Positions 4,270-21,799 of a stretch of DNA of 32,459 nucleotides are shown piece after piece (position 1 is the stretch's first letter; each line of letters starts with the position of its first letter). The notes beneath the pieces are model-generated. The model was given only the letters and a program-made list of their open reading frames with translations. It searched no databases and was not told the DNA's origin. The DNA comes from Paraglomus brasilianum (taxonomy: Eukaryota), in contig CAJVPI010000374.1 of NCBI GenBank assembly GCA_910592345.1, forward strand, positions 1 to 32,459. The letters run 5' to 3'. Both the position numbers and the translations under genes were made by a program.

Positions 4270-4665
4270 GGTGTTATATCGTTTTTTTCTTTGATAGATA
4301 CATTTCGGATACAAGTTTCTGTACGAACGCTTTGACTTCATGTTGTGTAATTCCAACGTGTTTCTCATACAGCATAGTGAATGTTTTATGATATTCAAAA
4401 TGAAAGGCCGCAACATGGAATTTCTCTAAGAGAGCTTCTCGTAATTCCTTGTCGTGTAAGTTAGAATTAATCGTTTTTTGATCCGTTGAGAGTTTTCGTC
4501 TGTCGGCTTCTCAGTATAAAATAGACAACCGCTCTTGTTGTCGTAAGTAAGGTCTTTACATCTCCGACGCAAATTGTACTTTGGCACAAAGACACCAGAC
4601 TGAAGATAAGAAACAATATCATTGAAGTCTTCAGGTGTGTCAGGTATTTTCGGTAATTTGACCAT
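4270..4665 (-). mobile_element. Integrase-like (Ginger/gypsy-type H2C2 zinc-binding region) remnant
   Basis: ORF 4426-4665 (IVSYLQSG...NLRRRCKDLTYD...CLFY...KKRLI) continues after frameshifts as REALLEKFHVAAFHFEYHKTFTMLYEKHVGITQHEVKAFV / ETCIRNVSIKEKNDITP. This is an HxxxxH...(C)xxC pattern. No catalytic core follows. Confidence 0.65.
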
Positions 4666-5520
4666 TATAAATGAAGCAACAATATAAAGTAAAGCGGATT
4701 AAGTAAGATAGGATAAACACAAAAAAAGTGCATTTTAGAAAAGAACTGAATCATCGCTATATAACAGTATTTACAGTAATCATCTGATCTTGATTCTTGT
4801 GTAGATATTTCGTAAACCACTAAAAATGGAAGATGGCTAAAGCGGAGTAGAACGTAACCTGATCCATGCAATTACATTAGTCAAATTTTACGTCAACCAA
4901 TGAAATTGTAAATAATCTAACCTATGCCCAAAAATAAAATATAAAAATGGGAATCGTCTGATTATCATATTAATATGGCAATTGGATTTCTTGCATTGTT
5001 TCCAAAATATTGACACGCAATTGTGTACGCAATTAAACGCGCAAAGATCCATACTCTCATCCTCGTGAAATATATAAATAGGACGTAAGAACATAATAAT
5101 AACATTTCTTTAATTTTATCCCTAAAACTCTTATATGATACAGCAATCGTAATATATGCAATACAGTCTGATTGACTTGTGAGAGCCACTGGATGAAGTG
5201 CATGGATAACAATAATAAAGTATGATTTGATTATGATATTTTACGTTGCACTCTATTTATGATATTCCTTATTGCACAATTTAACACGGTGATTATATGG
5301 CAAACTTTTTCTTAGTTCTCATCGCATACACGGTGAATTATAACCACCTTGTAAAATACACGTTATAATTATCTAATGATGATATTTACTATATGACTTC
5401 TTTTTTAACCTTCATCCATATTATCTTGATTAACTAAATTTGTGTATTTGTGCTACATTTCAAATGGTCCTCAAATTTTATCCCAAAAAAGACCCAGATT
5501 TTGTTTTAATCTGATCTGCC

Positions 5521-5845
5521 ACATTAATGCTGATGAAACAGCTCTCTTTTACCATATAAGACACTCTCTTCTCATTCAGTTTCTGGTGTTAAAAAGATAA
5601 AGGATAGGATAATCATTCTACTTGCTTGTAATGCAATTGGGACGGAGAAATTGCTTCTTCCCATATACAAAATACAAAACTCACGACGTATGAAGAATAT
5701 TAACAAAGACACACTCTCAGTACATTACTACTGGGACTCTTCCGCATGGATGCAATCAAGCACTGGCTAAATAAGCTAAATTCCGATATGCGTCATAAAC
5801 AACGAAAATTCTCCTACTTGTTGACACTGCCACTTCACACACACA
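5521..5845 (+). mobile_element. pogo/Tigger DDE_1 transposase catalytic-domain remnant
   Basis: Frameshifted peptides INADETALFY, SGVKKIKDRIIILLACNAIGTEKL, HYYWDSSAWMQ and WLNKLNSDMRHKQRK/LLLVDTATSH are hallmark DDE_1 motifs. Confidence 0.9.
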
Positions 5846-5894
5846 CCAGTTCGGTAAAGACTCATTATTTAGTAATATTACTGTTTATTATTTT

Positions 5895-6190
5895 CCAGTC
5901 TATCGTTAATCCAAAGTCAACGGGACCGAGGCTTAAATTCGATTAACGGCATTTTTGGATTTACGAGGTTTGTTCTCAATAATCTGAACACGCTATTGAA
6001 TAGTTTGGTTTGCAACTTAAGTCTTTGTAATTGTTTAGTTACCACAACATACACAAAATGGTTCTACACTCTTCCCACCTGCTAACATCTGATTATGTCG
6101 TCTCGTTTGAGGTGCAAAAAAACTGTCAATATGTAATTGTCGCTTACTTTGTATTTCAAGTACTTTAATTATTCGATGTAACTCTAAGAT
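5895..6190 (-). mobile_element. Terminus and C-terminal fragment of a second pogo-like element
   Basis: CAGTCTATCGTTAATCC...CGGGACCG at ~5896 resembles Tigger-type termini. The minus strand at ~6190-6115 reads ILELHRIIKVLEIQSKRQLHIDSFF, a KQxxIxxFF-type C-terminus. Confidence 0.45.
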
Positions 6191-6614: not shown

Positions 6615-6865
6615 TTTTTCTTTGCCGATCCATTGCCGATCCGTTGCCGATCCATTACCGATCTTTCAAACTGAAGATACGCCCTCAAAATTTTGACAGC
6701 AGATCTGTTTCATAAAACAATGGACGTTTGCTTATTGGAGATTTTTAAAAACTGGTCTTTTTTATCTTTTTCGTAACAAAAGCTCAATTAGTTTATGAAA
6801 CAAACGTTAATCTATCTGGTGTCAAAAATTTGATGGCGTATCTTTTTTTCTTCGGCAAAGAAAAA
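6615..6865. mobile_element. Fold-back/MITE-like element with long imperfect inverted repeats
   Basis: TTTTTCTTTGCCGA (6615-6628) pairs with TCGGCAAAGAAAAA (6852-6865). AAGATACGCCCTCAAAATTTTGACAGCAGAT...TGTTTCATAAA pairs with the reverse complement of ~6792-6844. The left arm has about 4 copies of an 11-nt TTGCCGATCCA-like unit. Confidence 0.7.
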
Positions 6866-8644: not shown

Positions 8645-9844
8645 AATTTACCTTTCAATAACACTTTTAATACCTGATATTGTACAAAAGATGAATATAA
8701 TAATGAGCTTACAACATATTTTTGCGAACTGCATGCAAGTTGCACAAAATCTTTGTAAATTATATGTACGGCCACAATAACATAACATCAGAAACATAGA
8801 TAATTTACTGATAATAGAAATACTGACACACTTGTTCCGACCCTGGTTTTACGGCTGAAAAAAAAAGTAACCGGTTTTGATATTACAGTTTTTAATCACA
8901 CAAATAATTGTATTATCAATTTTTTCCATTGTGCATGTCACATACGATATACGACAACCCCTACGACAACCCCACTACCGCAGATAGTCATTGGTTTTTA
9001 GAATAAAATTACTTATTATGGGCTGGGCAAATACAAACCAGCATATTATCTGTGTGCACATACTGGATATTTCAGGTGATTATTGATTTCTGGGAGCCTA
9101 ACGCTTGGATTATAGACGCAGCTATTAACATGAAAAATTTTATAATAACGCAGTCATCAGGTGGGGATACACTGAAACCGCTAAATAATAATAGCGGAGC
9201 CTTTTATCCTCAATCTATTCATTACCAGGTAGAGATTTTATCCCTTATGCAATTTATAAATTCTTATTCGCATTTACTTTTTAAATGACAACTGTAATTT
9301 TTATAGTAAATTGTTATTTATATTACATCTCCATCTCAGAGAAAATTTTAGCACGATTCATGTTCTGCGAAACCAAGCTTGTTTTACTAATAAGATTCTT
9401 AACGTTTTTAACAAACTTTGTACAGAATGTAATAGTAGAAATTATATGACAGTTTGTGTAATATTAGTGTAAAAGACTTCGAATAATGTTAGTAATCTCA
9501 AAGTCAGTGGACGGTTTATTAGACGTTCAGCTAAAAAGTCATTGTTTTATTGAGTAAGATAATGTTCTTTTATAATTACATATTCCCGCGACGATATCTG
9601 TATATAACTATGACGATATATATGGAATAAAAATATATGTATAATTATGACTAAATAACTAAATAATGATGCAATAAAAGCGTAAACATATTACGACATA
9701 GATAATACACTAAATAGTATCGTCTTCACTATTACTCAATGATTACGATATTGCAATATCATAATCGTAACAATTTGCAAATTGTTACAATTAGTATCAT
9801 ATAGTAATTAGGGATTGATTTGTAATGTTAGTACGTATATAGTG

Positions 9845-10062
9845 ACAGTAAAATAGGATATAACCGAGGTATGATATCTATATGATATGGTAATTTGGGA
9901 CGGCAAAGTATTGGGATAGTAATAGGGATATATCTGAAAGGGATACAAGTGAGGTAAATTTATATTGAAATACAATAAATAGAGGAAATCGTTCCGCTTC
10001 AGAGGTGGGATATATCTGAGGTTGGGATATTAAAGGGTGGGGATTTAAAAGAGGTATGACTG
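9845..10062. repeat. Cluster of GGGATA(N)nGAGGT motifs; probable DNA-transposon terminus/MITE remnant
   Basis: Repeated GGGATA...GAGGT units end in GAGGTATGACTG, whose reverse complement CAGTCATACCTC is a Tigger-like end. The same motif family occurs at 18141-18495. Confidence 0.5.
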
Positions 10063-11107
10063 TCGAAATATGTTCTACTATTGATCGTGAGTCAATTTTT
10101 GTTACTGCTGAGTGTAGCCGTCTTTCTTTATTAAACCTAGGTTAAATTATGTAGCAATAGCACCTATGATTTATCCTGTGATATTAATATGTTAAAAACT
10201 AGCTTTTGTGCGTCTCTGTATAGTTTGGCAATAAAAGTCATGCTCGATATTGTGCGTAGCCGTCTCCAACACACAATTAAAGCGAATGGTTAGCAAGGTT
10301 GTGTTTAGAGCTAAGCTGAGAAATCGCCTGGTCACCAATTAAAAACAACACTCTCAAGAAATCACACATCACATTAATATAACAATATTAATTTTTATTT
10401 TTCGCGAATGATTTTAGGCCACAAAAAGACTCGCCCCGTTTTGCTACGAGTAATAATGTTGACACAACATCATTAACTCTTATTCTTAGCGAACGTATTC
10501 AATCACGAACGCTTTTACTTTATTCTTAAACATGATCTTTCTCAGCGGAAAAGTATTGTTCCAATGAACTAATATGTCCGTAATAGAGCTTTATTTCATT
10601 ATAGCTTTCATTATCGCAGCGGAAGTCTTATAGTTAACAAGCTTTTATATCACTACGTTTATATCGTTCTGCTCCTTCTTCACAATAGTCGCTTCGGGAG
10701 ACTTAAGAACGATTATTCATTATCCTTTCATTCGAACTGATCGTTTTCAATAAGTTCACCGAGTTTCGTTATGCATTAGATTTCATATACTGATATGCAA
10801 GGTCGATCATGTTCAGGATTCCATTTATCAATGGTAATAGTTGAATTATTTTCGAGAATAAGGGTTAGAAATTATTTATTTGGTTGTTTTCAAGTTATCA
10901 AGACCAGATACAAAAAGTATGCAGAAAACTGCTTGGGGAGCAGTCATATTTAAGCATTTTGAGAACTAATTTCTGACTCCACAGCTAATTAATAATACAA
11001 AAATAAATTTTTAGTCATACTAATATAGGAAGAATTGGTAATAAGATATATAAATCCTATATTATAAGTTTTTAGATAAATATAAAGTGTCTGCAATTTT
11101 ATTTGCT

Positions 11108-13793
11108 TCATTGACATAAGTTAAAAAATTCTCTAGACTCCACTCCATCCTCTAATATGGCTTCAACTGCTGTTGCCATTTCTTCAGCAGTCATTTCCTT
11201 CTTCTCAGCAGCTTCTTCCTCCACTGGGTTTTCTTTTAAAGGGTTCTCTTCTTCTGCCTTTTCTTTGCCACTGAGAAGACCAAAATCTATCCCATCCACC
11301 TCATCTTCAATGTGCTTACACCTCCCACCAAGGTTTAGAAGTAAGTCAGCATCTCCTAAAGATTCTAACTCCATCAGTGACTTGGTCATCTCTGGATGAT
11401 GTAATTTGATAACTGGAGTTGGGGTAATAATTGGGGGGGTAGGATTGGTTTCTCCCTTTATCGATTTCAGTGGGATAGTAGTCGTCTTCTCCTTCTTCAA
11501 AGGCACTTTGTCCTCTAATTCTTCTGCTTTCCTCTTCATACCACTTGGCCTCAATTTCTCATCTCCTTTTATATTTTCTAGCCTCTTCTTTTCTTCACTG
11601 GGGGAGCCCAAAAAAATCTTCCTCAGGCATAGTCTCTCCTCTCCTTTGATCAAAGGTCCTAAAGACCCACCTTGCTTTGTCATAGATATACTCTCCAAGT
11701 CTTTTATAGGGAGACTTGGTTTCTCCCTGTTTATACCAGTTGACATTTGTTCTTTGGACTGGTTTGGAGGGCTCATAGATTTTTTATGGGAATTAGGGTC
11801 CTCTTCTTTTTGGGCAGTTGGCTGGACTGAATTGGAGCCTGGCTCCTTGGTCTTTTGCTTGGTTGGGGTCCTAATTCTGTAGACCCTTGTGTGGTATTCC
11901 TCATCACTTGTCCACATGGGTGTTGTGGTACCTGTGGGGTAATACTTTTGTCCCAGGTGGTTTTTGTGGATGTTGTGGAGTTTGTGTCAGACTCTGTGTC
12001 ACTGGTGGCTTGGGAGTGGCTTGGTTGAGAGATGGCTTGGGCAGGGGGCAGATATTGCTTGCTGGAAGTCATTTTCCTGCAGGCATCTTCCACTCTTCAA
12101 TAATCTGACTTGCAGAGGGATTAAACTTCCAGCTTCTGGCCCACTGGAAGCCATTGCACTCATTGTATGACTGGATGAGTTCCCTATTCTTGATTGCAGT
12201 GAGGAGGGAGAACATTTCTCCAATTGTTGATTTTGGCTTTCCCCAGATCAGGAGTTCATTGAGGATTGTCCAGAGGGAGACCACTTTCTGATTTTCTCTT
12301 CTGATCTCCATATAATTTCCTGTTGATCATCATCCTTAAAGAGACAATGGTTGGTACATAGGAGCCTGATAACTTTTCACAAAGCAAAATTAATATTAAG
12401 ACAAAAAAAAATTGTGTCAAAAATAATGTAACCTAATACTAACTGTTTCAGCTTGCTTTTGATATATTTATCATGCAATTTGCATGCTGGCAGACTAGTT
12501 ATGCTGAGGTACTCTATAAATATAAAAAAGTGTCTCATTAGATTATTAGCTTACTGAACATTAAGATCACTGAACATTCAGCAATTAGAAACCATCGGAA
12601 CTATTGTAATATGTAAATCTATATTAATATCTAGTCTTTTTTTTTTGTACAAGCATGACAAAAAAACAAACCTTTCATAAGCCAAAGTGAATAGTCATAA
12701 GACACTGAAAGAGTTTCTCTGTTGATTAATACTCCACACCATAAAAAGTCTAAATAAATACAATTTAGTAAATAGTGTTAAATACAAAGAGATTAATGTA
12801 GAAAAAAAAATTTTTTTGTTTGAATAATCTAAATATCATTTTCAATGACAGGAGATTCTGGTAAATGAACCTTGGATTTTATCTTATTGGTATGCCAACC
12901 ATAGTTTGGAAATCCTGGTCATATTAACATTAAAATTATTTACAAAATATAAAAAAAACAATAATGAATACTGTAAATATCATAAACTCTATACCATTTT
13001 CTATTTTGCTCACAAATGTTCTCACCAATTCATCATTGTGAGAAATTATGAGCATATCATCAATGCAGTTTTGGAAGACCTATGTGTGTTAAATAATGTT
13101 ATAGTAATAAAAAGTATTATTACTATAAAAATGCATTTTAATTTTACAATATACTGTCACACTTACACAGTCTTGCGATAGCACAAATGCCAGCTCTTCT
13201 TTTATTAAATTATTAAAGACTTGTCTAGCAGACCAAATTATATAGCCATTAATATTATATATTAATACAATACAAATACAAAGTAAAAGAATACCAATAT
13301 ACAATACCTGTAAACTGCATCAGATATTAATGCTCCTTGAGGAATCCCTCTTTTATACTTGTAATAACCACCATTGATCTGATTTTTTAATCTATGTTAA
13401 TGAGTATATTTAATATTTACCAATGTTATGTTCTAATAATGTATTAGCATAATTATAATGTGGCAAAAATCTTAACCTTAAATGTGGTTTCTGTTACAAA
13501 CTGCCCAATGGTTCTCATCACCTGTTCTTGAGAGAATGTCTCAACCTTCTTGATGAGAAATACCTTCTCATTCTTGCTAGGTCTGGGATTGGCAATCATC
13601 TCTTGAATAGATTCATCTACATCAGAATTTATCTCTATAAATAATAATATCTTAACATAATATTAATATATAACACTTGTGCAACTCAATTACCTGAAGG
13701 TGATGCAACCATTTTTACAGCAACAAGTGAAAAAACATTATATTCTTTACATTGTAAAGTTTGTTCTTTCATCACTTGTAGTAGCTTTTCTTG
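11108..13793 (-). pseudogene. TERT: Divergent telomerase reverse transcriptase (TERT)-like gene, multi-intron, 5'-truncated and disabled
   Basis: Exons 13793-13694, 13634-13477, 13378-13308, 13224-13167, 13079-12995, 12914-12837, 12749-12672 and 12513-12444 splice in consistent phases. They give QEKLLQVMKEQTLQCKEY...FVTETTFK|INGGYYKYKRGIPQGALISDAVYR|QVFNNLIKEELAFVLSQDC|VFQNCIDDMLIISH...FVSKIENG|FPNYGWHTNKIKSK...|DFLWCGVLINRETLSVSYDYS (IFD, motifs B', C, D, E). The donor at 12836 is AT rather than GT, and stops occur in the 3' part. Including 11108-12372 in the gene is tentative. Confidence 0.85.
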
Positions 13794-14500
13794 TTATAAT
13801 TAGACTTGCACTTGAAATGCAATAAACGGGGAAATATTCGTCTAGACATGTGTTTATCGTTATAATCCGTATAATCGTTAATCACACAGGCCCGGGAAAT
13901 GGCAGGCATGGTGTCATATCGAGAATAGCCAAGCCAAAAGAAGAATGCGTTTGCGGCAAACAATTCACTGATAGCCTGATCTTTGTCGTGTCGTTAAGTT
14001 CGACTCGCCTTAATGATGCCGCGAAGCTACTGTTAGAACCGTGCATGAAACTCGTTAGCAATTACAAAATTATCATCCTCACATTTTACCTTTCTAGCTC
14101 GTTGGCTAGTCTTATACCATCTTGCTTTAGATTCGAACACAACCACGACGCCAGTAGTTCCACGAGCAATTTCACTGTTCCAGTATCACTTGTTTGCATA
14201 AACATCTATTACAACGTATTTTGTAAGATTCTCAGATCCGATGGAAGTCGTCCCGAATGTATGACCCATCGCCCACGCAAACAGTGAAGTGAAGGCTTAC
14301 TGCCGAACGTAGGGAAATTATCGAAAGTCATCCATGACACTTGTTCCCATGCTCCATAGCGCGCTGCAAGCTGCTCGTGGTCATAATTGTCGTCTCATCG
14401 TCAGACCGTCTTTTACGCCCTCTGCGTAGCTACGAGCACTCTCAGCAGCCAATTTGGGACCTAATATGAGACCTTGCACCGTCACGGTGGTTCGGATCTT
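13794..14500 (-). pseudogene. Decayed spliced gene of unknown family
   Basis: CpG-rich segment with GTAAGC...TAG and GTAAAA...GCTAAC...CAGTAG intron-like signals. The spliced reading DNYDHEQLAARYGAWEQVSWMTFDNFPTFG|NVYANK*YWNSEIARG...RARK|LRGIIKASRT*RHDKDQAISELFAANAFFFWLGYSRY contains stops. Confidence 0.35.
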
Positions 14501-14688
14501 ATAAACTATTGTTTGTGTTTCAGAATCATGCATTTATAAATTTTATTGGGATATAAAAGTACGAAAGTCGGTTGAAAGTAGGGCAATATTTTTGATAATA
14601 CATGTGTATCAAATCATCTAGAGACATAATTCGAACAACAAGATTGAGATTAAGATTAAGATTTTAATCTACATTTCATTTCTTCATG

Positions 14689-14736
14689 TTTGGCAATGAT
14701 CAACACCGAAAAAACGCCTTTCAATTTTATACTAGT
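14689..14736 (+). repeat. Dispersed short repeat, copy 2 (copy 1 at 2374-2430)
   Basis: TTTGGCAATGATCAACACCGAAAAAACGCCTTTCAATTTTATACTAGT, matching copy 1. Confidence 0.6.
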
Positions 14737-14965
14737 ACCTAACTATTTATCCTATATGATTTCAGGAAATGTGACGGCTTTTGCTATCATGAATCGATAG
14801 GCAAATGACAAAGCAGTCAACCATGCACAAAGAAACTAGCATTCTCAATATCACACTGTATCTAAATTTACTTTATTATTGAATTGAACACCATCTTTTT
14901 TATTTACATTCAGTTCTCAAAACATGCCAATGGACATCAACCATCTCCTACCGACCATTTTCTCT

Positions 14966-17879
14966 TCACTTTCCTCCTCCAATAAAATCAAAAACATTTT
15001 CACCTAAGCCAGCCTCATTCATCACACGCCATAGTTGTCTCTCAGCTTCGTACACACCGTCAATGACTGGATCAACGATGGAGGTGTGAGCGTCGATTAA
15101 GCGTAGATGAGAAGAGAGAGAGTGCTTAAGATTGGATAATGAATCGGGCGACGGTGGCGACTGTTTAAAGGAATGCATGAAGGCAAATCAATAGAAATAG
15201 GGACTGTTAGTCGTGAGGGTGGAAACGGAGGAATAGTTAGTTTATCCTTCTCTCCATACTCACGGTCCATGAGACGTCTGTAGTCACATGAGTAAGATAT
15301 TTTTTGATTAAGTCGTTGTCGATGTCAACAAGATCATCCGGATCTTCCACCTCCTTCAGTAGAGGATGAAGCTAATAGGTTTGTATTAATTCAACCCAAA
15401 AGGGACGAGACAATAGACTTGATTAACTCTCATGGTACATTCCACGTTTATCGTACACACGGTATACAAATACATAATACGACAATCGCAGGTACCTTAG
15501 ATTTCTGCAAGGAACGATTTCTTGAATCGACCGACTTTTTAGCACTTTGCAAGCTCTTTAAGAATTCCGATTCTTCTTTTAATAGTCTACATATAAAAAA
15601 AGACACCTTTTATATCAATCTAGCCTTCCCCTGTACAACTCCCACTAAAGCAAAGATGCTCACCGCTTTTCTTTCTCCAACTGCATCTCCATTTGTTTTA
15701 TTTGGTCTGTTTCCTGTACCAGTAAAGCTTCAAGATCTTGCTTGTAAACATAATAATTTATATTAATAAAGACCCTTTAATAGACCGTAAAACGCGATAA
15801 GGAAAATGGGAAATATACATGATGCAAAGATAGCTTCTTGTAATCGAGACTACTGGTCGCGTTTGTAGCCACTGGAACAGTCAGGGTATCCAAGGATTTG
15901 CTTATTCTATTGGGATACAACAGGGTGTGAGACAAGCAAAAAGTAAAGCGACATACATCTGATAGCACTTACTGTAAAATCAACTTGTCCAATTCAACCT
16001 GCAGTTGCTTCCTCCGTGATGCTCCATTTACGTGGGCCAAGACGGCTCTTGAAGAAATACAGACAAACAACAATAAGACTCTCCGCGAATGTACTTCCCA
16101 TCCCACGTATTCTTACCCAAATATTCTCTCATGTCTAATCACGACGCTCTTTTGTCACTGGTGCCTATGTCAAAGACAAAATTTCAAAAGCTACTCACGG
16201 TACAGCATTTCGTAACAGCTTGTTGATAAGCCGTTTCGACGCAGCATCAAGTGGCCTCCATCTATTCTTTACTATTGATGAAGACACTGAACGTACTGTC
16301 TTTATAAGCGTCGTTGAAGATGAAGCAGGAGCTACAAGAGTAGGGATAATTAGGAACTATAGCGTTTAGACATTCAAACCCGATTGTCGTGCTATATTAA
16401 CTTTTATACCTTGACTTTCGGAATCATCATATTCAACGTCTTGCATCTCTTCATCCTCTTCGTCTTCTTTCACTTCTTTACCCCCTACAATCGCATCCCT
16501 CTCTTCGTCCTCGTACTCATCATCACCATCCCCTTCCTCCTCGCCACTCTTCTCCATTGTCCAATCGTCGTTTTCCTCATCATCTAAAATAACTCTCGCT
16601 CTCTTAAACCTTCTACTACTACTCTCGCGCCTTAAAGAACGTGTATTTTCTTCCACAATTTCACAATCTACTGCTTCAGCTATAGTGTCTACAGTTTCTC
16701 TTCGCGAGCTTCTCGGTGTTGTTATTCCTACCATTAATTCATCTATGAAAAAACCTTGATCAGCTACTCGAATTACCTCATTACCTGCTTCTTGAACTAA
16801 TTCATCAGCTACTTCATCAGATAGTCCACTAGTCACTTCATTAGCTAGTTCACCAACTAACTCATTAACTGCTGTGTCAGAAATTTCATCAGCCACTTCA
16901 TCAGGTGCCTCATCAGCCACTTCATCAGCCACTTCATCAGATAGACCACTGACTACTTCATCTACAGGTTCAACAGCTACCCCACCAGATACTCCACTGG
17001 TTCCTTCATCTGCAGGTTCATCGGCTATTTCGCCAGCTATTTCATCCACCATTTCATCTGCTACTTCATCTGCAACGTCATCCATTACTTCATCAGATAT
17101 TTCATTATTTATTTCATCCACAACTTCATTTGTCTCGGTTTCTATTTCTTCTATTGCATTTTCGACTGTCGTTCCCTCCACTGTTGCTGGTTCTGTCGTT
17201 ACTTCTACCACGACGGCTACAGTTACTCCTGGTGCAGCTATAGGAGATGCCATCTCTTCTTGATCTGATATTACATCTGTTGTTGCAAAATTCGATACAT
17301 TTTCTCTATTTTCATCAATACTAGCATTCTCTTCCTCCTCAATTCCTTCTACTTTATCTCCTTCATCATCTTCTTCTTCTTTTCTTGTCTGCGTCCTCTT
17401 AGGTGAGCCATTTTCCTTTTCTATACTCGCTTTTGACTCTAAATATTCGTCCACCGTTCGTTTCCTCAAATTCCTCCTCTCGGCGGTCGACGGAAGCTTG
17501 ACCAATTTTGCAATCACATCTGACGTGGGATCGGAGGCTTCACGATGGGAATTACCAGCAAGACGCTTAGAGTAACGAGTTAGTCGCGTGCGCGATTTCG
17601 TAGGAGGAGAGTGGGGAGAAGAGCGTGAGCGGGAAGGAGAGGAAGGTTTGGAATTGGTGAGAGCATTTGAACGTGTGCTTGAGCGCGTTTGATGCAAGCG
17701 TGTTTTTAAGCGTGAGCGGGAAGGTTTGGAATTGGTGAGGGCATTTGGACGTGTACTGGAGCGCGTTTGGTGCAAGCGTGATCTCAAACGTGTTTGCACG
17801 ACCTGTCTTGAGAAAGAAAAGTATTATAGAAGGGGAAGTACAGAGAAAAGAAGAAGAAAGGCAGAAAAGAACTTACCAT
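14966..17879 (-). CDS. CENPQ: CENP-Q/Okp1/Fta7-like inner kinetochore protein with long disordered N-terminus (9 exons, ~720 aa)
   Basis: Exons 17879-17877, 17802-16410, 16331-16199, 16047-15973, 15906-15819, 15740-15664, 15586-15496, 15371-15264 and 15160-14966 are all GT-AG and total 2163 nt open. The C-terminal part (IVKNRWRPLD...LLRNAVPAVL...LDYKKL...DLEALL...coiled coil...KLHPLL...SLSSHL) matches the pattern of fungal CENP-Q proteins. Confidence 0.8.
16790..17130 (-). repeat. Coding 12-nt repeat encoding (DEVA)-like tetrapeptides
   Basis: Repeated TTCATCAGC(C/T)AC units on the + strand encode VADEVADEMVDEIAGEIADE...SDEVADEVADEAPDEVADE. Confidence 0.8.
17642..17782 (-). repeat. 78-nt coding tandem duplication (26-aa period)
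   Basis: RLHQTRSSTR[P/S]NALTNSKPS occurs twice. The DNA copies begin at 17642 and 17720. Confidence 0.85.
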
Positions 17880-19517: not shown

Positions 19518-20523
19518 ATGCCTAAAGTGAAAGCGCGACGCACTCCTAAACTAAGTATGGCTTAATGTGAGCATTATGCACAACAGAAAAATGAAAGCTA
19601 ATACGAATGTATAATAAGATGCAGGCCAGCGTCTGCTGGAGCTACGACAGACATTGAAAAGACTAGTGAGAGATGACTTCCAGGCAAGTACCCTCACTGT
19701 CTAAAAGAGTGGATTGCAATGTTAAACGACAACCGTAATTACGCAGGATATGGAGCAAGTCAACATAATACTTGAACAAATTGAAAAAACGCGCGCCACG
19801 GTCCACATGCTTCAGGTAACAAAAAGTCCAACCGTCTTTCCGTTGCATATTGACATTTCAATTTACGTGACCTATCTTCCCCCTCCTTTACAAAAAATGC
19901 TCGCCCTATATCAGGAAAGTAATATAGGCAAATTGGTGCGCAAGATAGCCACTCTTGAAATAGAGCCAGATCCATACATGATCAAATCCCGCTGCCTTGC
20001 TTTGATGCAACGTTATCGGCGCACTCTCGAAAACTACAAACGTCGCCATGTTGCTGAATTTTACTACAATACCGATACCCCTGTCTCTACCATTTCCGAT
20101 GCTCCTGCTTATGAGTCAGAAGAATCTAATCCGTTTGTAATCCTTCAAAACGATATTGAAACTGATAGCGATTGTGGCGAAGAGGACGTCGAAGGTGGTG
20201 GGGGAACATATTTTATAGTATATGATGCGAGAGCTTGTGAAGATAACGTTAATGAGGATAATGATTATTATAACGATGTGAAGGAGGAGGGCAATGATGA
20301 GGCACTGCGAGAGGAGGCTATTGTTGTAAAACAAGAGAGTAATTTTGCTGGATATAATGAAAGCATTGATGATGTTGTGGAGGAGGTTGATAATAAGGGT
20401 TTAATTTTTGATGGAGATAAAATCAAGATTAAGGAAGAAGATAAGAAGACAAAGAAAGAGGAAGGGAACAGTAAAGAAACAGTAATGGTTAGGGAGAAGA
20501 GGAATAAGAAACAAAGTTCTTAA
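19518..20523 (+). CDS. TFIIS-N/Med26-like helical-domain protein with acidic tail (4 exons: 19518-19554, 19625-19683, 19747-19815, 19915-20523; ~257 aa)
   Basis: Spliced product: MPKVKARRTPKLSQRLLELRQTLKRLVRDDFQDMEQVNIILEQIEKTRATVHMLQESNIGKLVRKIATLEIEPDPYMIKSRCLALMQRY. The LQxSxIGKxVxKI...RCxxLxxxY pattern resembles the C-terminal helical domain of fungal PWWP proteins. Intron 2 uses a GCAAGT donor. Confidence 0.7.
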
Positions 20524-21159
20524 TTGTCATCGCCATAATAATCAGAAGAACTAGGATTATTAAAACGACAGCTGATTATACTTTTGCTGCCTCTGGATAA
20601 TCTGGTTAGTTCTTGTTATTTTGTTTTCTCGAAACAGCTATAATGTGATTTTACTGTCTCGAACCACCAGGTGTTGAAATAGCAAATGACTGCAAGACTG
20701 TCTTGCCATAAGCCAAGATGTGGTCTATTAAATAAATCTGCGTCAGAAAAAAACCTAATTTTCATGGCACGAAAATATCTGATATTTTACGCATGTTTGG
20801 TAGCATATAGTACAGTATATGGATATCTATATCTGGCGCATTGAGATAGTAAACAGCGATCTTGTTTATTAACACTATCGTTGTCTGAATCTTTGTTCCC
20901 TGCTGTGATATTGTAATGACATTATATGTACGTAAATATCCTGCCCATTTTGAATTAACGCACCCCTCTTACAGTCTAGCGTCAAATAACTTTTAGAAAA
21001 CTAAAAACTTATAAAACTTATCGAAATTCATACGTGTTGAGTTTTCTATGCATCCCTAATTTGTAATTTCCGTCACACACTTGATATTAAAATCTGATTG
21101 GTCAAAATCGATATTTTTCATCGAAAAAAGATTTCTCGCTCCCCACTTATGATTTGACA

Positions 21160-21799
21160 ATGGACGTTGATAGTCCGAGGGATGCGCCTTTGATTGTGGA
21201 TGATCTGGAGCTTACACCAGACAAGCTTGACTTTGTAAGGCCCGTTTTTATGTTACATATGACTTTTATAGTTTTTATGTCTTGCAATCATGCATCAGAT
21301 ATTGTTTAACATCTATCTTTTCTATTTACGATCAGACTGTTGGCCCTCATGGAGATAAGACCACCATCACGTTCGTTATAAAGAATGAAGATCACACTCT
21401 TGGAAATGCATTAAGATTCATGATAATGAAAAAGTGTGTATACTATTATATCGGGTTTTGCGTTTGATATGGATTGCAAGATATGAATTGTTAACTCTTG
21501 ATATGGTGATAGTCCCGAAGTCACATATTGTGGTTATTCAATACCTCACCCGTCAGAAGCAAAGCTTCACTTGAGAATTCAGACAACGAGTATGTATAAA
21601 CTGGTTTCTGATTCTAAGTAACGTCACCTGCTGACGACTTTCTTATCGTTCTGATTTAACTTCATCAGGCAACACAGATGCAATAAGTGCTCTCAAAAAA
21701 GGGTTACTTGATTTGGAAAAAATGTGTAGACATATACAAAAGGAGTTTACAAAGTCTGTTGAAGAGGGAAACTATGAGTGTGAAGTCGAAGCACCATGA
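21160..21799 (+). CDS. RPC19: DNA-directed RNA polymerases I and III subunit AC19/RPAC2 (4 exons: 21160-21234, 21336-21433, 21513-21589, 21669-21799; 126 aa)
   Basis: [46 protein letters not shown]...[13 protein letters not shown] is the RPB11/AC19 signature with the AC19-type [10 protein letters not shown]. All introns are GT-AG. Confidence 0.95.

Follow-up and report, generated by a model that had tools for sequence, protein, structure and literature searches.

A CpG-depleted block in a Paraglomus brasilianum contig containing part of a divergent TERT-like gene that probably broke up in place

Introduction

TERT is reported to occur as a single copy in most eukaryotes, and truncated TERT paralogs or pseudogenes have been described in Nicotiana (TERT_D and TERT_12exD), Populus, Vigna, and Amborella (PMC7916837). 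A second system to be compared is that of the Penelope-like elements (PLEs) without an endonuclease, such as Athena and Coprina, which encode a telomerase-related reverse transcriptase (RT) (PMC8557442). In the present study, we analyzed a 32,459-nt stretch of DNA assigned to Paraglomus brasilianum (positions 1 to 32,459 of contig CAJVPI010000374.1, assembly GCA_910592345.1; hereafter the window), in which a fragment of a TERT-like gene lies in a block of approximately 3 kb that is almost devoid of CpG (block 1). Neither a divergent fungal TERT paralog nor a truncated fungal TERT copy was found in the open-access papers searched.

Gene-body methylation occurs in plants and invertebrates. In fungi it is described as largely lost, albeit with exceptions, and the deamination of 5-methylcytosine (5mC) is known to deplete CpG (PMC13297926). 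Arbuscular mycorrhizal fungi are reported to retain all five types of 5mC methyltransferases (PMC8298701). The intron pattern, the GC content, and the habitat of the relatives suggest a host of the Mucoromycota/Glomeromycota type. For Rhizophagus, subsets of non-core genes are described as highly CG-methylated irrespective of copy number, with no necessary link between repetitiveness and methylation (PMC8647823). The open-access papers searched yielded no account of fungal genes losing CpG.

A sequence-only reading of the window had put block 1 forward as a candidate inserted element silenced by methylation. Our analyses do not support that view. Rather, we regard it as probable that block 1 holds the middle of a broken, very divergent TERT gene that shattered in place, the CG of which was lost by long-term gene-body methylation predating the break. 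The fragment resembles the truncated copies in plants in bearing introns and disabling changes and in being broken up beside repeats.

A broken TERT-like gene

The TERT-like sequence runs on the minus strand from 13795 to 12344 and comprises nine exon pieces (Table 1). The RT motifs occur in the order of GIPQG, CIDDML, GFPNYG, and WCG, which we take to be motifs B', C, D, and E, respectively, and the deduced protein is 33-34% identical to two canonical TERTs (L005 and L007). A scan of metagenome contigs for motif E yielded 26 loci, L005 and L007 among them, and three of the 26 match the window gene at the DNA level. One relative, L019 (1902 bp), extends 700 bp further in the 5' direction than the window and is ~94% identical to it over the compared exons (31 differences in 202 codons). 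The 5' part of L019 carries a domain that lies outside the window, Telomerase_RBD (PF12009; E 4.3e-23, 82.4 bits), and 15 out of its 15 PDB matches were TERT. In the spliced alignments, five of the eight introns in the window share both codon and phase with those of L005 and three of the eight with those of L007, the introns not counted as shared being located in poorly aligned stretches. Because of the Telomerase_RBD and PDB matches of L019 and the introns common to canonical TERTs, the window gene descends from a cellular TERT, not from a PLE.

Neither the single exons of the window nor their read-through frames found anything significant in Pfam or PDB, single exons being too short, and three word-based protein searches returned no scoring homolog (weak evidence). 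The full phmmer search gave four matches, namely three short metagenomic open reading frames (ORFs) of this TERT-like family and P0006, the last of which was dropped as an unrelated tandem-repeat protein.

The alignment with L019 runs up to 13795, a position that lies within the exon following motif A and 32 nt before the next CG, in agreement with the sequence-only reading, which had placed the end of the TERT homology near the right CpG edge. Position 13795 is a true rearrangement junction inside the exon, and everything 5' of the IFD is missing from the window. With the 33-nt deletion set aside, the remnant of this exon is identical to L019 at 98 of 100 nt. The splice donor at 12836 is dead; use of AT as a non-canonical donor was rejected, as both relatives have GT (Table 1).

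In another relative, L015, the C-terminal half is unbroken, with 10 exon pieces and 273 codons up to the stop, and permits the 3' side to be followed. Approximately 590 bp of L015, from the point corresponding to 12344 to the segment with the stop codon, are replaced in the window by ~1.9 kb of unrelated DNA. That segment (10377-10421) matches the gene end of L015 at 40 of 45 nt, on the same strand and in frame, while 232 further probes taken from L015 and 500 shuffles scored 32 at best. Since the last codons and the stop (10388-10420) sit outside the CpG hole, the stop codon being ~470 bp beyond block 1, the gene likely broke up in place.

Canonical TERT is described as possessing N-terminal motifs, the T motif, and motifs 1, 2, and A (PMC7658794). 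An intact frame together with this set, as expected of a working TERT, is not present in the window. The window copy is predicted to yield no working protein, and we interpret the locus as a TERT-like pseudogene fragment. A closer relative from a public run (P0005, corresponding to 12591-12759 of the window) matches from motif E into intron 7 and is unrelated thereafter; this switch is possibly another, independent break.

Table 1. Coordinates of the features discussed in the text (positions in the window; o/e, observed/expected ratio)
Feature	Position	Strand	Remarks
CpG-depleted block 1	10855..13826	.	CpG o/e 0.046
Remnant of exon after RT motif A (IFD start)	13694..13795	-	Cut inside exon at 13795; 33-nt in-frame deletion relative to L019
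IFD exon	13477..13616	-	Acceptor 13617, as in L019
Exon with motif B' (GIPQG)	13308..13378	-	
Exon between motifs B' and C	13167..13224	-	
Exon with motif C (CIDDML)	12995..13079	-	Both aspartates kept
Exon with motif D	12837..12914	-	Donor 12836 is AT; GT in L019 and L015
Exon with motif E (WCG)	12672..12749	-	
First exon of C-terminal extension	12444..12513	-	
Start of next exon	12344..12372	-	Homology to L015 ends at ~12344
Non-TERT coding-like piece	11108..12343	-	85-aa frame closed by TGA and followed by a 292-aa frame of low complexity; CpG o/e 0.03
Repeat-family DNA	10425..11107	.	10425-10854 CpG-rich (o/e 1.75), 10855-11107 CG-free
Last 10 codons, stop (10388-10390), and start of 3' untranslated region of TERT-like gene	10377..10421	-	Outside CpG hole
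Unrelated CpG-rich DNA joined to cut exon	13796..14450	.	
CpG-depleted block 2 (internal control)	21789..27562	.	CpG o/e 0.018; 3 CG against 163.9 expected
Intact two-exon TPR+LRR gene model, 1591 aa	22789..27683	-	CpG kept in exon 1, lost in body

The CpG-depleted block

Exactly four CGs (11462, 11483, 12596, and 13176) are found between the CGs at 10853 and 13827, the very four named in the sequence-only reading, whereas 86.8 are expected (Poisson P 5e-32). Shuffling within 100-nt tiles (n = 2000) gave a mean of 86 CGs for block 1 and a minimum of 58. The flanks of equal length have o/e of 1.11 and 1.04, and block 1 is clearly below them, as had been claimed. The depletion is confined to CG: CAG/CTG shows an o/e of 1.5 and CHH is not lowered. 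An excess of TpG/CpA is present but modest, with o/e of 1.20 in block 1 and 1.10 in the rest of the window. Repeat-induced point mutation of the ascomycete type entails the loss of CpA and the gain of TpA in repeated DNA. In block 1, CA is at 1.20 and TA at 0.80, against 1.10 and 0.87 elsewhere; the pattern is not that of repeat-induced point mutation because TA is not raised.

The block had been described as sharply bounded and filled by the TERT-like gene. It is not filled by it, as TERT-like sequence accounts for 49% of the block, and the left border is not sharp. The left CpG border is blurred over ~150 bp, with the posterior of a hidden Markov model (HMM) being ambiguous across 10821-10979, and other copies of the left-flank repeat extend into the CpG hole, which places this border within a repeat copy. 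On the right side, the CpG border may coincide with the 13795 break, as 30% of the 32-nt segments in the right flank are free of CG. Two further short holes called by the HMM (5417-5573 and 16779-17007) were set aside as noise or low complexity.

The divergent TERT lineage

The relatives indicate what kind of gene was broken. L019 encodes, in 1066-1902, a Telomerase RNA-binding domain, an eroded T motif, and a motif A ending in CFES; the core of its T motif reads NFHMMS, as compared with SFFYVT/E in human. The catalytic aspartates are kept in motif A (L019) and motif C. A search of ESM Atlas with the 5' part of L019 gave no usable match. Unusual surroundings of motifs B' and C (GALISDAVYR and NCVDDML) were seen in L015 (676-2319) and L014 (7388-8740). 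The last exons of L015 and L014 had no TERT match in PDB, and the label 'C-terminal extension' is given on the basis of the open spliced frame and its position.

The ratio of nonsynonymous to synonymous changes (dN/dS) between the window and L019 was 0.29 (17 nonsynonymous and 14 synonymous changes in 202 codons; P 0.002). Over 109 codons, the ratio was 0.28 between the window and L015 and 0.18 between L019 and L015. The TERT-like lineage was thus under purifying selection (dN/dS 0.2-0.3). When assigned to branches, the changes, small in number, were six nonsynonymous to three synonymous in the window and two to seven in L019, and the counts of the window branch would fit a recent relaxation. 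In the tree (14 rows, 11 of which are different; L014 and the loci shorter than 90 aa were left out), the window, L019, and L015 formed a clade with support of 100/100 and a stem of 3.18 changes per column. This clade was joined to L005 with support of only 76/67 and a very long stem, and we did not use its placement as evidence. The depth of the stem, the selection of its own, and the ~33% identity to canonical TERTs distinguish the window lineage from the truncated copies in plants, which are recent near-copies of working TERT.

CpG loss outside the block

CpG loss was also found over genes that are not broken. Block 2, a second and larger hole that the sequence-only reading does not mention in connection with block 1, covers most of an intact gene with TPR and LRR (Table 1), which starts at 27683 and loses CG from ~120 bp after the start. 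Its ORF has a CpG o/e of 0.02, and 39 of the 41 Arg codons in the long exon are AGA/AGG. Block 2 continues for 1 kb past the stop of this gene, up to the end of a gene for an Rpb11/AC19-type subunit. The short core-type genes of the window have a CpG o/e of 0.72-1.49. As for the TERT-like relatives, the CpG o/e of L019 is 0.09 in the part shared with the window and 0.04 in the 700 bp absent from it, and that of the unbroken L015 is 0.10 in the RT part, 0.67 at the 3' end of the gene, and 1.31 downstream. L014 lies on a single unrelated contig, along which a CpG-poor gene gives way to DNA of normal CpG.

As L019 and the unbroken L015 are equally depleted and under purifying selection, the CpG loss is likely older than the break and likely coexisted with function. 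We consider methylation-driven decay to be the likely cause. Furthermore, the CG depletion of an unbroken relative and of an unbroken neighboring gene makes long-term methylation of such genes likely, rather than the silencing of a new insertion. Of the repeat-like methylation history proposed in the sequence-only reading, the decay of methyl-CpG stands as likely, while its repeat-like nature does not, given that L015 and the TPR-LRR gene are depleted and the high-copy repeats are CpG-rich.

The pattern resembles gene-body methylation in that CpG is lost from the body of intact genes but survives in the 5' exon of the TPR-LRR gene and at the 3' end of L015, but departs from it in that short core-type genes are not depleted and block 2 runs past a stop codon. 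Methylation has been measured in Rhizophagus irregularis (PMC8647823; PMC8298701), whereas what we see here is a scar in the sequence, and a near-complete one (o/e 0.02-0.05). The high-copy repeats beside block 1 keep their CpG, unlike the transposable elements of Rhizophagus, which are described as generally high in methylation; old, short copies are described there as lowly methylated, and this may explain the CpG-rich repeats in the window.

We propose that a fast-evolving lineage arose from an ancestral cellular TERT and that the catalytic aspartates were kept in it, with the T motif eroded. CpG methyltransferases would then have marked the TERT-like gene, as they likely did the TPR-LRR gene, and deamination would have brought CpG close to zero under selection that preserved a readable protein. 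Subsequently, the gene would have lost its 5' half and acquired a repeat and a fragment of another gene; once inserted, this DNA likely underwent additional CpG loss at the locus. The mark we envisage is CG methylation of the maintenance type on the bodies of selected non-core genes, which would lead through deamination to equilibrium and then to decay.

The non-TERT pieces and the flanks

At least three pieces make up the mosaic of block 1. In that at 11108-12343, a stretch rich in His precedes a long low-complexity frame of acidic/basic character. Protein searches assigned this piece to no known family, and ESM Atlas returned only matches below 0.9 for the 85-aa frame. To look for further copies, we used four runs (X1-X4) of one sample that is possibly the window's own source; each amounts to 4-36 Mb and is small, uneven, and incomplete. 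A second copy of this piece, ~85% alike over parts of 11130-12199, was found on contigs in three of the four runs, and the excess of depth in X4 roughly places the end of the second copy near 12332, at the junction with TERT. Among the 25 listed differences between the two copies (12024-12168), four are CG in the second copy and TG/CA in the window, one of which sits at the TGA stop of the window; the reverse difference is impossible there, as the window has no CG in the compared stretch. These four differences speak for deamination at this locus.

The DNA at 10425-11107 is repeat DNA by its summed depth (up to 16,641), and 10424/10425 is likely an insertion junction. By eye, the loose ends of other copies of this repeat match the window at 10873-10902 and 10976-10994, and the CA of the window at 10980 is CG in one of them. 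The high-copy repeat at 9400-10854 is CpG-rich (o/e 1.38), contrary to what is usual in fungi. To the right of the cut exon, the sequence-only reading had recognized a CpG-rich pseudogene. The richness in CpG was borne out for 13796-14428 (o/e 1.25), where a frame is interrupted by several stops; its status as a pseudogene was not, with no Pfam match above cutoff (best E 0.004) and no PDB match.

Alternative explanations

Several observations weigh against decay in place. The excess of TpG/CpA is small, methylation is deduced from the sequence, and the canonical TERTs L005 (CpG o/e 0.77) and L007 (1.20) are not depleted, so that CpG erosion is not general to TERT genes. The relatives have their own weaknesses: L019 may itself be damaged, as its frame contains a stop close to motifs 1-2 and its GIPQG reads GIPRG, and L015 consists of the C-terminal half only and counts as one observation with L014, to which it is 99.5% identical. 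The differences listed for the second copy of the non-TERT piece come from 40 of 301 rows of differences. The segment with the stop codon is only 45 bp long and could be a small repeat. The end of a 22.6-kb contig of X3 carries again, with two differences, the 200 bp that begin with this segment (10225-10424), and the whole of 10225-13795 could then be a moved duplicate. Finally, a real junction at the right border is also what movement would predict.

These last points bear on an alternative that we hold to be unlikely, in which the mosaic was assembled and methylated elsewhere and copied in as one piece, by segmental duplication or by capture of the Helitron/Pack-MULE type. The right CpG border and the cut in the exon at 13795 coincide, a second copy exists of the non-TERT half, 10225-10424 recurs elsewhere, and the left end is surrounded by repeats; for Nicotiana, a TERT copy is proposed to have been shattered and transferred with the aid of transposons (PMC7916837). 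However, neither target-site duplications nor terminal inverted repeats exceeded the random control at the four pairs of ends tried. At the ends of the block itself, there was no direct repeat of at least 6 nt and one inverted repeat of 8 nt, as compared with the 95th percentiles of 9 and 8 in the control. The left CpG border lies inside a repeat copy with the stop of the gene beyond it, the RT exons have no second copy at 80% identity or higher in the four runs, and the depth of X3 over 12515-13417 is flat at 24.7, the value of its own contig alone, so that a donor copy was not seen. In addition, the unbroken relative is equally CpG-poor. The arrival of the block as a unit, as proposed in the sequence-only reading, thus sits poorly with a mosaic of at least three pieces, a stop codon outside the block, and an RT part without a second copy. 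The same reading had raised Penelope-like retrotransposition, that is, the copying of unspliced TERT-related RNA without an endonuclease into a 5'-truncated copy, which we judge to be highly improbable. PLEs are reported to be able to keep introns and to move intron-containing host genes (PMC8557442), and the locus shares with Athena and Coprina a telomerase-related RT, retained introns, and truncation at the 5' end; one telomere-like 8-mer lies at 10861. Nevertheless, there is another isolated 8-mer of this kind at 20487, which we regard as background, and there is no telomeric tract in the window. A comparison of 9000-15500 with Rfam, hammerheads included, gave no match with an E of 0.1 or lower, and no poly(A) was found at the ends of the block. 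No pseudo-LTR (long terminal repeat) and no tandem or inverted partial copies were present among the 20 largest direct families and the 25 longest inverted pairs listed, nor was a copy family found. Block 1 is internal, at least 10 kb from either end of the window, and the 3' half of the gene is interrupted rather than terminated. Likewise unlike PLEs, a telomerase RNA-binding domain is present in the relative L019, and the intron positions correspond to cellular TERT.

The window gene might, alternatively, be the only TERT of the organism, in a lineage that is losing telomerase and keeps its chromosome ends in another way; this we consider very unlikely, though it would point to the loss of telomerase in a fungus. 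In its favor, the four runs of one sample contain no second RT-exon copy at the identity given above, and damage recurs in the stop of L019 and in the departure of the P0005 source within intron 7. On the other hand, a canonical TERT is ~33% identical and invisible to a comparison of reads at 80% or higher, the runs of 4-36 Mb are incomplete, and TERT is reported to be usually essential (PMC7916837). Moreover, the canonical L005 and the divergent L014 share an assembly prefix, which fits two TERT types in one habitat, if perhaps not in one organism. It is similarly improbable, to about the degree of Penelope-like retrotransposition, that the mosaic is a chimera of assembly or amplification or the DNA of a contaminating CpG-poor organism. 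The small, uneven assemblies of X1-X4, from one sample and possibly the source of the window, leave room for such an artifact. However, among the listed pieces, single contigs bridge 13795, 12343, and 10855 in all four runs and 10424 in two of the four, and a like switch, out of a CpG-poor gene into DNA of normal CpG, is seen for L014 on its single unrelated contig. Altogether, decay in place, in a genome with gene-centered CpG erosion, fits best and is in our estimate the probable course of events.

Significance

The locus itself is a dead fragment, and it is of interest mostly for its divergent TERT lineage and for the inversion of the CpG pattern. A silenced transposon should not be read from a CpG hole by itself. 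Near-total loss of CpG over intact genes beside CpG-rich repeats offers a direct test of whether gene-body-type methylation persists in early-diverging fungi. As a more tentative proposal, these soil fungi may have a second, long-diverged TERT lineage, in which selection retained the catalytic aspartates but the telomerase-specific T motif was abandoned, i.e., a telomerase-derived RT with another job that is dying in this branch, with CG methylation being placed on selected intact gene bodies and high-copy repeats left unmarked, contrary to what is usual in fungi; we deem this possible, short of probable. A TERT offshoot that is under selection and has an eroded T motif would provide a natural test of the roles of TERT beyond telomere synthesis.

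Other features of the window

The TPR-LRR gene contains ~20 near-identical 84-nt LRR units. The core-type genes with near-normal CpG encode an OMP decarboxylase-like protein (199-914), the Rpb11/AC19-type subunit (21158-21800), and an RF-1-domain protein (28458-29230), the last of which is ICT1-like. Transposon remnants with normal CpG were found at 4274-4698, 5537-5946, and 6674-6844, comprising an integrase zinc-binding-like sequence (E 0.001), a DDE_1 sequence (E 5.5e-8), and a pair of 31-nt inverted repeats. A 485-aa frame at 16366-17823 matches no family and includes an acidic repeat region with a period of 12 nt, and its CpG content is normal overall.

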